Positions 16,744 to 19,405 of a stretch of 32,161 bases of DNA are shown here, piece by piece. Both the position numbers and the translations under genes were made by a program. Source of the DNA: a virus (Duplodnaviria; Caudoviricetes); IMG/VR virus record IMGVR_UViG_3300025779_000010, positions 1-32,161 of that record. The stretch is one strand, 5' to 3'. Position 1 is the stretch's first letter; each line of letters starts with the position of its first letter. Under the pieces are notes generated by a model. It did not search any database. It was not told where the DNA came from and saw only the letters and a list, made by a program, of their open reading frames with translations.

Positions 16744-18432
16744 TTATTTACCTTCTAAGAAACGTTTAACGAAATTGTTTTTGCGAGTAGCATGAGAATC
16801 CATAGCTACAGCAGTTGATACACCTTTGCCTTGTAAGAAAGCATTTAAGAATGTAACACGACCAGTCTTAGGTGCTTCTACACCAAGTTTTTTCAAACCA
16901 TATTTAGCCATTTTGTCCAAATCCATTTCTGAATGGTCAAATGCGCCAATATGTTTTGATAAGCGTTCATAGAGTTTTGCTTTTTCAGCAATGTTTTTCT
17001 CTACTTTAGCAACGATAGCAGCAGCGTCCATACCATTGCCACGTTCACCTTCCATTGGTTCTTTCTCAGCACCACCAACCTTACCACCAGCAAGACCCAT
17101 TTCTTCGTCTGTTGCTTCGTCATCAGGTTTTTCTGTATCGCCATCAGGTTCGGTTTCATCTTCGTCAGCAACAGCTTCTTCACCTGCTGAACCAAAAGAT
17201 TGACCCGTTAATTCTTGAATTTTTGCCAATTTTGGCATGACTTCTTCAAGGAATTTATGAACTTCCTCTAGGGTCATAGTAGGCTTCTCGCTACCTACTT
17301 CTTTGTTTTCTTCAGCCATGTTAAAAAGCTCCTTATTATCTACTGTAAAAGTGAAATGGTCTAATACTGCTACATCAGGACCCATACGTCCGTTTTCGAC
17401 TAGGGCTAGATGATTGCCTCTGATTTCTCGTTGCACATAATCATAAGCTACACCATCATAAACTCCAGGAGCATATTCATATCTGCAACGATAACCGCAG
17501 GACAATTCTTTTTTACCGTTAGCAATAAGATTACTCATTGCTTCGGAAAATACTTTGATATTACCTTTAAGATATTCACCATCGAAATAAACATCTTCAC
17601 CGATAACACCTTGAATACCTTTTGCTTCGGCAGGAGTTAAACCTTCATCTTCACTGCCAAGCATAACGTGATTATCAATCCAGGGGAGCAACTTGAATGA
17701 GTTAATACATTCCTCAGTTGATAGTTCTTCTGCTGGACGATATACGTTGTAAATCTTATCTTGTTCGCAATCAGGAGAGATTGAACCGCCTGAATATTGA
17801 AAAATACCTATTTTAGAAAGCGGATTGTCTTTTACTTCAAACCATCCGTTTGTATCATATTCACGCTTATCCATTGCTGAAGCGTTCTCCTCAGCTTTTT
17901 CGGCAATTTCTTCTTCTTCCCCGTCAATTTTGTGAAACAGGGGATTGGGTGCATCTTCAATCGTTGCCCAAACAAATTCGCTGTGTTCGTCATTTAATTC
18001 AGGTTTAAATTCACCATCATTACATCCAAACAAACGAACTTTTCCATCTTCATAAATCAATTGAAGTCCAGTTTCAGGAACGTGCATTGTTTCTTCACGG
18101 GATTCACGAATAGCACCTTCAATTGCTGATTCGCCTTCTTCAACGTGACCGCCAGGAAAGCCCCAAGAATCATCTTTGGTACGTTTTAACCAAAGGATTT
18201 TGTCATCATCTGTATAAACGATAAACGCAACAATCTTAGAATCAGGTTCTTCTTTTAAATCACGCTTATGTGACTCATGTTCTGTTTCGGTTTCTTCTTC
18301 ATCAACCGCAGCGCATTTACGAGCATTTTGATAAGATGCAGCAATAGATTGATTAAGCGGATGCCCAGCCTTAACCATCTCACGGATATTTTCTTGAATT
18401 ATTTTCTTGCTACATCCTTCTAATAAAGGCAT
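16744..18432 (-). CDS. Prohead protease/scaffold (DUF2213-like) with N-terminal Nudix hydrolase domain
   Basis: Nudix box [25 protein letters not shown]2213 motifs [29 protein letters not shown]; acidic scaffold-like C-terminus; AAGGA RBS. Confidence 0.9.
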
Positions 18433-18435
18433 AAT
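18407..18435 (+). promoter_or_regulatory. Putative sigma70 promoter for the antisense HNH gene
   Basis: TTGCTA (18407-18412), 17 nt spacer, CATAAT (18430-18435); AAGAGG RBS at 18447-18452 before ATG 18459. Confidence 0.55.
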
Positions 18436-19043
18436 GTTCCTTTCTTAAGAGGCATTTTATGAATAAATGTATTGTATGTGACAAAGAGTTTCCTCTCAAA
18501 TATAGAAGCAAGGGAATTAAACAAGTTTGCTGTTCTAGAGCTTGTTCCTATAAACATCGTGGTGATAAAGAGGTTATTTGTAAAACTTGTAAAAAACCTT
18601 TTAGAGCGCATGGACTTAGACAATATAAAGAATATTGCTCTCTTGCTTGCGTTCAAAGGGAGCCTTGCCAAACTTGTGGAGAAATAATTACTGGTAGAGC
18701 AAAGTTTCAAAGTGGAGAAAGAAAATTTTGTTCTAGAAAATGTGCAGGAATTTCTCGAATCATTAATGGTAAAGCAAAAGTTCATTACATGGCAAATGGA
18801 TTTGCTCAAACTATTAAAAAGTTTGGAAAAATATGTTGTGAAATTTGCAATCAATTTAATATTGATTTTCTTGTTGTTCATCATATAGATGAAAATAGAA
18901 AAAATAATGAACCAAACAATCTTCAAACACTTTGTGCAAATTGTCATCATCAATTGCATTGGAAAAATTCTCGCAATAGAATTAATAATATTGAAAAAGC
19001 TAAATTTATTGCTAATAATTCCACAACCTGATTTTAACGGCAT
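18420..19043 (-). other. 207-codon antisense bridge ORF starting at the relic protease start (MPLKSGC)
   Basis: ATG overlaps upstream stop (TAATG); open across the entire HNH gene; stops just past the protease ATG. The product does not resemble a folded protein family. Confidence 0.5.
18459..19031 (+). mobile_element. HNH endonuclease with N-terminal Cys-rich zinc-binding repeats, opposite strand to operon
   Basis: Three CxxC...CSxxC repeats; CEIC...LVVHHIDENRKNNEPNNLQTLCANCHHQLH HNH core; only convincing plus-strand gene. Confidence 0.92.
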
Positions 19044-19405
19044 TAGATTACCCTACCTGTTTGGAACGGAATATTAGTTACATTAAGCAATACAGTAGCT
19101 TCACGAATATTATCTTCGCTTGTATTGAATATTGGGCGAATTGTATAAACTTGATTTGTTGCACCGCTTGAAACAATTCCACCTGATATATAAACTGATA
19201 TTACTTTTCCAATTGCTGCAATTACACCGTTAGGAAATGTGACAGGTGAACTATTGATTGCTGGAGCTGTAAACACTAAACCAGTTTGGTCAGATGTAAT
19301 AGAAGTAATAGACAAAATTGTTTCAGTAGTATCTAAAATATTGGTACAGTCAATATCGTACCAAATACTTTCAGTTGTCCGTTTTTCTAATATGTAACTA
19401 TTCAT
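19043..19405 (-). CDS. Fibre adaptor-like virion protein
   Basis: K...E...YDID...L...ETI, V.ISGG...Y pattern recalled from phage fibre adaptor proteins; coupled to neighbours. Confidence 0.6.
   Translation of the reverse strand: MNSYILEKRTTESIWYDIDCTNILDTTETILSITSITSDQTGLVFTAPAINSSPVTFPNGVIAAIGKVISVYISGGIVSSGATNQVYTIRPIFNTSEDNIREATVLLNVTNIPFQTGRVI

Follow-up and report, generated by a model that had tools for sequence, protein, structure and literature searches.

A question raised by the 32,161 nucleotide (nt) virus record IMGVR_UViG_3300025779_000010 (Duplodnaviria; Caudoviricetes), the whole of which is called the window here, is how a nuclease gene can lie within the first codons of a phage head gene, on the opposite strand, and leave that gene a usable start. 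The usual view of homing nucleases is that they spare their host genes either through splicing or through an intergenic position. In the window, a 32-kb record that occurs in freshwater metagenome runs, an HNH endonuclease gene is the sole plus-strand gene of the head block, and three copies of the start of a protease-containing gene lie around it. It is quite probable that this is a mobile antisense HNH gene which enters the first codons of MPLxxG-type phage genes with a recoded start, is likely to spread through cleavage of the empty start, and likely lets translation of the head operon continue through an open ‘bridge’ frame on the opposite strand. Sequence comparison demonstrates the layout, exact empty alleles, a near-identical unit in divergent backgrounds and one target gene in unrelated phages. 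L-numbers denote relative loci compared with the window, and X-numbers denote sequencing runs.

The insertion and its empty alleles

Copies 1, 2 and 3 are the old start (19043), the middle copy (18455) and the working start (18432), all on the minus strand (Table 1). They had been picked out in a sequence-only reading as MPLKSGC, in a TAATG overlap with the TAA of the upstream gene, MPLKKG and MPLLEGCS, and each lies where it was placed; likewise, the HNH open reading frame (ORF), 18459–19031, does end in a TGA (19029–19031) that is antisense to codon 5 (TCA) in copy 1. In four of seven close carriers (L009, L017, L022 and L029) this codon reads TCG, and the HNH stop falls two codons later, on codon 3. 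Copy 1 gives the HNH gene its stop and also opens the bridge frame. Scored with a profile of 119 uninvaded starts, the middle copy (24.6), old start (18.8) and working start (12.6) rank 1, 2 and 6 among all window positions on both strands, and the copies are therefore beyond chance. An independent contig from a 2012 sediment run (X10) covers 18161–19481, including both junctions, without a difference, which rules out an assembly artefact.

Repetition of a ‘protease N-terminus’ was only half right: the sequence is indeed repeated, but it belongs to phrog_2423, a mobile module of ~42 amino acids (aa) that occupies residues 1–42, outside the protease core, and is fused to Nudix and DUF2213 domains. 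Elsewhere the module stands alone (e.g. 41–92 aa in L204, L188 and L180) or leads other proteins, and the MPLxxG start pattern is present in about 3,600 stretches of the viral collection.

Twenty-six protease relatives were found, 21 of them with a readable start. Thirteen of the 21 have TAATG-MPLxxG-x-SK fused directly to the gene body after the Gp77-like stop, four carry the HNH gene, two have a LAGLIDADG gene in the junction and two a different upstream gene; the HNH gene is thus missing from 17. The sequence-only reading had proposed insertion after about codon 7 and expected TAATG-MPLKxGxSKK to run straight into the protease body in relatives lacking the HNH gene; the 13 display such a direct fusion. 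L002 and L003 match copy 1 over 21 nt and continue with TCA AAA GAG GTT, the point at which the window enters the insert; HNH-free relatives read TAATG-MPLKSGC-SKEVIQEN, of which the window retains the first 21 nt exactly. The left junction follows codon 7 inside the host gene, so the position is not intergenic. HNH-free homologues do begin MPLxxG, and spaced copies are absent from them, none of the 119 uninvaded starts having a copy ≤40 nt upstream that scores >10.1.

The old start and the protease are offset by 611 nt, of which the HNH ORF takes up 573, leaving <40 nt of the insert outside the ORF. A self-splicing intron, including a group I intron with an HNH ORF, was rejected, as the space is too small and Rfam gave no match at E ≤1. 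Folding of the RNA at the junctions, of the kind a bypass or frameshift signal would require, was not above shuffled sequences (z −0.28, 0.80 and −1.55).

The HNH sequence is 97–100 % identical across seven loci, and the three main carrier backgrounds are only 0.74–0.78 alike in their upstream flanks. Carrier L032 is 0.93 identical to noncarrier L002, and the gene body of L017 is 0.89 identical to noncarrier L012 versus 0.83 to the window. Over nt 1–30 of the gene, identity is 0.93 between carriers versus 0.58 between a carrier and its best noncarrier; beyond about nt 33 the two are similar. Because only the first ~33 nt of the gene co-travel with the HNH gene, the unit is bounded at 19022–18400. 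Occupied and empty alleles both occur among close relatives, with the element better conserved than its flanks, and an empty-allele contig end was found in the same run (X4) as the invaded allele, a run from which the DNA of the window may itself derive. A near-identical unit in divergent flanks is, as far as alignments can tell, the pattern expected of homing with short co-conversion, general recombination also contributing.

The HNH protein has Cys-rich zinc-finger-like repeats at the N-terminus and a C-terminal HNH core with a conserved HH-x-D...N...C-x-x-C-H; the HH, N, N and CH are invariant in 15 sequences. Of 17 codons that differ between the window and L037, 13 are silent in HNH, indicating purifying selection. 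The structure model has a predicted local distance difference test score (pLDDT) of 83 and a predicted template modelling score (pTM) of 0.52, and a Foldseek search with it gave no match at E ≤0.001. The best match with VIA-align, the GVE2 phage HNH protein (Z 4.9, root-mean-square deviation 3.6, 64 residues aligned), is weak, tied with others and restricted to the HNH core, and a profile search of the PDB returned weak HNH matches only. A search of 50,697 cultured-phage records gave just two partial matches, at 36 %, and thus no isolate with the element. In RNA run X21, contigs of an L009-type variant extend over the HNH gene and new start in a small share; these contigs reveal neither strand nor transcription.

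Location among the head genes and the top structural match to the GVE2 phage enzyme would suit a packaging or maturation nuclease that serves the phage, or a passive passenger, with the copies arising by illegitimate recombination. A gene that is antisense to the operon, missing from most readable relatives, and tied across unrelated phages to a DNA site and not to a gene partner makes such a role very improbable.

The nuclease family and its probable target

Relatives of the HNH protein at 43–66 % identity provided 14 independent loci with context: the window, L039, L040, L041, L042, L045, L055, L135, L174, L175, L177, L312, L332 and L357. L043 and L044 duplicate L042, and L158 and L159 equal L174 and L175, respectively, each being counted once; pattern matches L155, L157 and L161 were dropped as chance. 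The 14 loci are a sample, about 36 protein clusters existing at E ≤1e-30. All 14 genes are antisense to their flanks, and 11 directly precede an MPL-type start, mostly in unrelated phages. An old-start remnant of 9–30 nt is located at the 3′ end of the HNH gene in eight loci and usually provides its stop.

The new starts differ from the uninvaded ones. Eight of 11 new starts have a residue other than Lys at position 4, versus 30 of 119 uninvaded starts (p 0.002), and nt 11 is not A in 7 of 10 versus 24 of 119 (p 0.002). Remnants of up to 30 nt are tolerated and recoding spans nt 1–33, which argues for a bipartite site that is split by the insertion; recoding confined to about 33 nt around the place of insertion suggests that the cleavage site may be close by.

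Taken from these alignments, a homing cassette with an immune restart is highly probable. During co-infection, the nuclease would very probably nick or cut the intact start and repair would copy the unit in, the left repair arm being the old start with the upstream gene and the right arm the gene body from about nt 34. It is rather likely that the invaded allele would then be safe, the old remnant lacking the 3′ half of the bipartite site and the new start having an altered codon 4.

A nuclease that cuts elsewhere nearby, in the manner of the T4 seg and mob enzymes, would explain the shared insertion place as one ancient insertion plus co-conversion. The free-standing T4 enzymes cut hundreds to thousands of base pairs (bp) from their own genes, as the available part of one account describes (PMC2988022), and 3 of the 14 loci are not at MPL starts. 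This is unlikely, since the MPL start is the only thing common to the 11 loci, where upstream neighbours and fusion partners vary (Gp77-like, AAA, Mu F-like and others without assignment), and the co-inherited host sequence is only about 33 nt, with the recoding concentrated in it.

Two longer family members, L332 and the related L357, are placed after a 335-aa gene. In L332, the last codons of that gene (WPGR-stop) recur at the opposite end of the insert, immediately ahead of MPLKKG, which suggests that this longer-fingered sister lineage may target the other side of the junction. L135, a contig binned in a Bacteroidales metagenome-assembled genome, has four start-like copies: old, middle, a decayed MLSKK and a fresh MPLKSGKSKK further on (29 and 81 nt from the HNH start).

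The bridge frame and the middle copy

From the old start, the minus strand is open across the whole HNH gene, in codon register with it and out of frame with the protease, as far as 18420. An open bridge requires the HNH gene to avoid TTA, CTA and TCA, which are stops on the opposite strand. None occurs in its 190 codons (7 Leu and 9 Ser), although these are the commonest choices of the genome (P 6e-5 from genome codon use), and the longest run free of them in the 39 other window genes is 87 codons. They are likewise absent from L039, L040 and L055 (within-gene P 1e-8, 6e-6 and 1e-4) and from L332; fourfold sites differ by 42–76 % between these members, so the stop-free state has been independently kept. 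Among 82 distant HNH ORFs taken as controls, none has zero opposite-strand stops. With restart permitted in the interval between 20 nt before and 6 nt after a stop, coupled chains of ATG-started frames span the insert in 6 of 14 loci (null 0–12 per 1000 each). In L042 and L135 the single frame is broken, and each has three overlapping ATG-started ORFs that join the old to the new start.

Constancy of length (207 codons in all five complete carrier sequences: window, L001, L009, L017, L022 and L029 as aligned; 202–249 in three relatives) could be taken to mean that the frame encodes a functional protein, such as an inhibitor of or immunity factor for the nuclease. That is very doubtful: of the 17 codons changed between the window and L037, 16 alter the bridge peptide, the same substitutions being mostly silent in HNH as given above, and a functional antisense protein was rejected on this pattern. 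The peptide has no Pfam or PHROG match, and in L042 and L135 the frame is split and still links the two starts. Selection against opposite-strand stops without selection on the bridge peptide is apparent from the codon comparisons.

Translational coupling and polarity are established operon biology, and we infer that they apply to the bridge. Its simplest reading is probably selection for translation itself, which would couple the bridge to the new start and protect against polarity. After finishing the upstream gene, ribosomes would probably restart at copy 1, cross the bridge and stop over the new start, by which coupling would be kept and polarity avoided.

A second nuclease class occurs at this hot spot. 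In L005 and L006 a single-motif LAGLIDADG gene of 140 aa (2588–3010, plus strand) lies in the same junction in sense orientation, is TAATG-coupled to the upstream gene and overlaps the MPLKSG start; from its layout, this sense gene appears to do the job of the bridge with its own frame. Unrelated HNH-like antisense genes with long opposite-strand ORFs are present in L046 (2417–2899), L050 (2432–3367), L052 (127–765) and L123 (50–535), all on the minus strand of the locus; in L046, 4 nt separate the upstream stop from the beginning of this opposite-strand ORF, the end of which has a 13-nt overlap with the next start. The antisense gene of L048 lacks a long opposite-strand ORF. A general rule that antisense HNH genes keep a bridge is suggestive in the first control set and was not seen in a second, in which orientation is mostly unresolved. 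L342 has a 126-aa HNH without an opposite-strand stop, between repeats that resemble a tRNA type by eye.

The middle copy had been proposed as a ribosome site for both genes, and this fits the sequence, a Shine-Dalgarno-like motif being present on each strand. Its description as a relic of an earlier round in this phage does not hold: it fits the family consensus (MPLKKG), and the old start only at 11 of 17 nt. Of the sequence-only reading as a whole, then, the insertion after codon 7 stands and the relic falls; the bridge frame and the family-wide target were not part of it. In the window, L039, L040, L042, L135 and L177, the middle copy is placed at −2 to +4 nt relative to the HNH ATG, with the next start 23–26 nt after it, and this fixed place in HNH genes with saturated synonymous sites marks it as a retained element of the cassette. 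In these 6 of 10 loci its score exceeds that expected from random back-to-back ribosome sites (0–9 per 5000); chance back-to-back sites as the whole cause were rejected (0/5000 in the window). The copy may descend from a start duplicated when the cassette was formed.

That a start so duplicated has been kept only as back-to-back ribosome-binding sites, with the nuclease not binding it, is on balance likely. CCTCTT and AAAGGA provide a Shine-Dalgarno motif on each strand, at spacings of 6 and 5 nt to the respective ATGs, selection acting on these ten letters would keep most of the inherited match, and the copy is missing in 3 of 10 loci. Against this, the L177 copy follows the MPLQ variant of its host, as a target-tracking binding site would, yet gives the HNH gene no clear Shine-Dalgarno motif; the A at nt 11, lost in most new starts, is retained in six of six middle copies; and target-like operators are established for I-TevI (PMC2988022, as far as the available text of that paper covers them). 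By analogy, it is quite possible that the middle copy is an operator that is bound and not cut, limiting HNH expression besides holding both ribosome-binding sites. Only tentatively, the whole can be seen as a self-regulating, splicing-free homing cassette of ~620 nt, specialised for the start of one small and very widespread phage gene, that would use its 17-nt target in three ways (intact for cleavage, split and recoded for immunity, and as an operator where it covers the ribosome site of the nuclease gene) and would pass ribosomes through a decoy frame.

A weak promoter-like site at 18407–18435 would have its start inside the middle copy. The HNH region contains eight promoter-like sites versus 5.9 ± 2.7 in shuffles, which is not above chance. 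One further site, at 18471–18499 on the minus strand (TTGAGA-17-TACAAT, 10/12), lies inside the 5′ end of the HNH gene and is directed at the new start; it could drive the head genes directly, the regional count being not above shuffles.

Several observations weigh against the account of a homing cassette with a recoded start and a bridge. Phages recombine freely, so patchy flanks are by themselves no proof of homing. L174, L312 and L357 are not at an MPL start, Lys4 is retained in 3 of 11 new starts (L045, L135 and L332), L332 duplicates the end of the upstream gene instead of a start, and only 3 of 11 branches of the family tree are supported, leaving it mostly unresolved. Zero opposite-strand stops are also found in 2 of 57 shorter non-family HNH ORFs (the second control set). 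With GTG and TTG starts included, chains span the insert in 10 of 14 loci, but the null then rises to as much as 21 %; L177 and L312 have no coupled chain under any setting, and in L045 and L332 a chain forms only if a gap of up to 12 nt is permitted. No middle copy is present in L041, L055 or L175, and that of L045 is weak. The promoter proposed for the HNH gene is a weak one and occurs in 4 of 10 loci versus 12 of 119 uninvaded ones (p 0.02, post hoc); creation of a promoter by the recoding was rejected as weak, the empty allele of X4 carrying the same −35-like letters.

Genomic setting, known systems and wider meaning

Nearly every gene of the window is on the minus strand, in the order terminase, portal, Mu F-like, fibre-like genes, Gp77-like adaptor and then the head block, in which the 562-aa gene (16744–18432) is first and is followed by a cement protein and the major capsid protein. 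The coordinates of the features are collected in Table 1.

Table 1. Features at the HNH insertion in the window
Feature	Position	Strand	Remarks
Host gene, 562 aa	16744..18432	-	phrog_2423 module 1-42, Nudix 68-165, DUF2213 head maturation protease 190-359, acidic tail
Mobile unit, 623 nt, in place of target nt 22-33	18400..19022		Antisense HNH, middle copy and recoded first 11 codons
Copy 3, recoded working start (11 codons)	18400..18432	-	Codon 4 Lys to Leu; predicted nuclease-immune
Weak sigma-70-like HNH promoter	18407..18435	+	TTGCTA-17-CATAAT, 9/12
Bridge frame, 207 codons, from old start across whole HNH	18420..19043	-	Stop 13 nt past first base of new start; peptide not conserved
Copy 2, MPLKKG-like, non-coding in role	18438..18455	-	Best match in window to target consensus; candidate operator
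Shine-Dalgarno-like AAAGGA, 5 nt before working start	18438..18443	-	Read from sequence
Shine-Dalgarno-like AAGAGG, 6 nt before HNH ATG	18447..18452	+	Antisense of copy 2, read from sequence
HNH endonuclease, 190 aa	18459..19031	+	Pfam HNH above cut-off; no TTA, CTA or TCA codon
Copy 1, original start of host gene, codons 1-7 (MPLKSGC)	19023..19043	-	Same as HNH-free alleles L002/L003
Upstream host gene, 120 aa, Gp77-like adaptor	19043..19405	-	Just below Pfam cut-off; TAA overlaps old start (TAATG)

The fusion of Nudix and the phrog_2423 module ahead of a prohead protease (16744–18432) is itself variable, both extras being missing from the protease of L024. Fibre-like and repeat-rich genes lie at 19398–22837, between the Mu F-like gene and the protease and not in the tail block; they include a 430-aa protein with S-x-x-E-T-G-N-A-x-D repeats, a 549-aa Gly/Ser/Thr-rich protein and a tail assembly chaperone. 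A DNA-modification cluster at 28160–31711 comprises a ParB-like and N6/N4 methylase gene (28160–29323), a Tet/JBP-like oxygenase (30439–31242, under the cut-off) and a P-loop protein (31223–31711); modified bases from this cluster could influence the nuclease target.

The nearest logic to the cassette among known systems is, by analogy, that of the fungal mitochondrial mobile ORFs (mORFs) that bring in a foreign gene end, of which the cassette is a mirror image at the 5′ end. As far as the accessible part of one account describes them, these are found in Allomyces atp6 and in Glomus atp6, atp9, cox2 and nad3 (PMC3630166). Shared features are the entry of an endonuclease gene into a coding gene with no splicing involved, a divergent substitute for the part displaced, and a native remnant equal to the uninvaded relative; in the window, copy 1 equals L002/L003 over 21 nt, and copy 3 is 0.58 identical to noncarriers over 30 nt. 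The cassette differs in replacing the 5′ end and ribosome site, whereas the mORFs described there replace the 3′ end (C-terminus), and in being an antisense HNH gene in a phage with a bridge frame and third copy, the mORFs being mitochondrial and of the LAGLIDADG or GIY-YIG class.

With the T4 seg and mob genes, in the portion of PMC2988022 available, the element shares the lack of an intron or intein, patchy presence and, for mob, the HNH class. T4 segD is antisense like the cassette HNH gene, and translational coupling is discussed there for sense-oriented T4 enzymes. The T4 genes are intergenic and their enzymes cut at the distances given above, whereas the cassette lies inside codons 7–8 of its likely target and rebuilds the start. 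ShiLan, an insertion in a phage methylase gene, is alike in having a zinc-finger HNH of ~195 aa within a host gene, an open host frame, no splicing and a short target-like end duplicate, to judge from the part of PMC11855218 that is accessible. In that account the ShiLan gene is on the same strand, out of frame, and stays in the host protein; the cassette, in contrast, is antisense, its open frame finishes over the new start in a different frame, and the insert forms no part of the host protein. I-TevI likewise has a copy of its homing site (15/20 nt there) just upstream of the nuclease gene, through which it is autorepressed (PMC2988022, available part). The comparable site of the cassette, present in 6 of 10 loci and the top profile match of the window, would be such a copy if the MPL start is the target. 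The I-TevI site overlaps a mapped late promoter in an intron and binding has been demonstrated, whereas the candidate operator of the cassette overlaps the ribosome sites of two divergent genes.

Replacement of a 5′ gene end is also known from the SXT element, which replaces that of prfC via an integrase. A full-text literature search, from which subscription papers were mostly absent, returned no paper on an antisense phage HNH gene with a replaced start and bridge frame.

In phages, the element would represent a third route besides splicing out and intergenic placement: entering the first codons, supplying a new start and keeping the opposite strand translatable. The small MPLxxG module would be a landing site in thousands of unrelated phages for one family of small nucleases. 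For annotation, a warning follows: an antisense ORF that is long and lies over an HNH gene can be kept open by selection without encoding a useful protein. The bridge offers a clean natural test of the dependence of phage late operons on continuous translation, as one silent change in the HNH gene breaks it.

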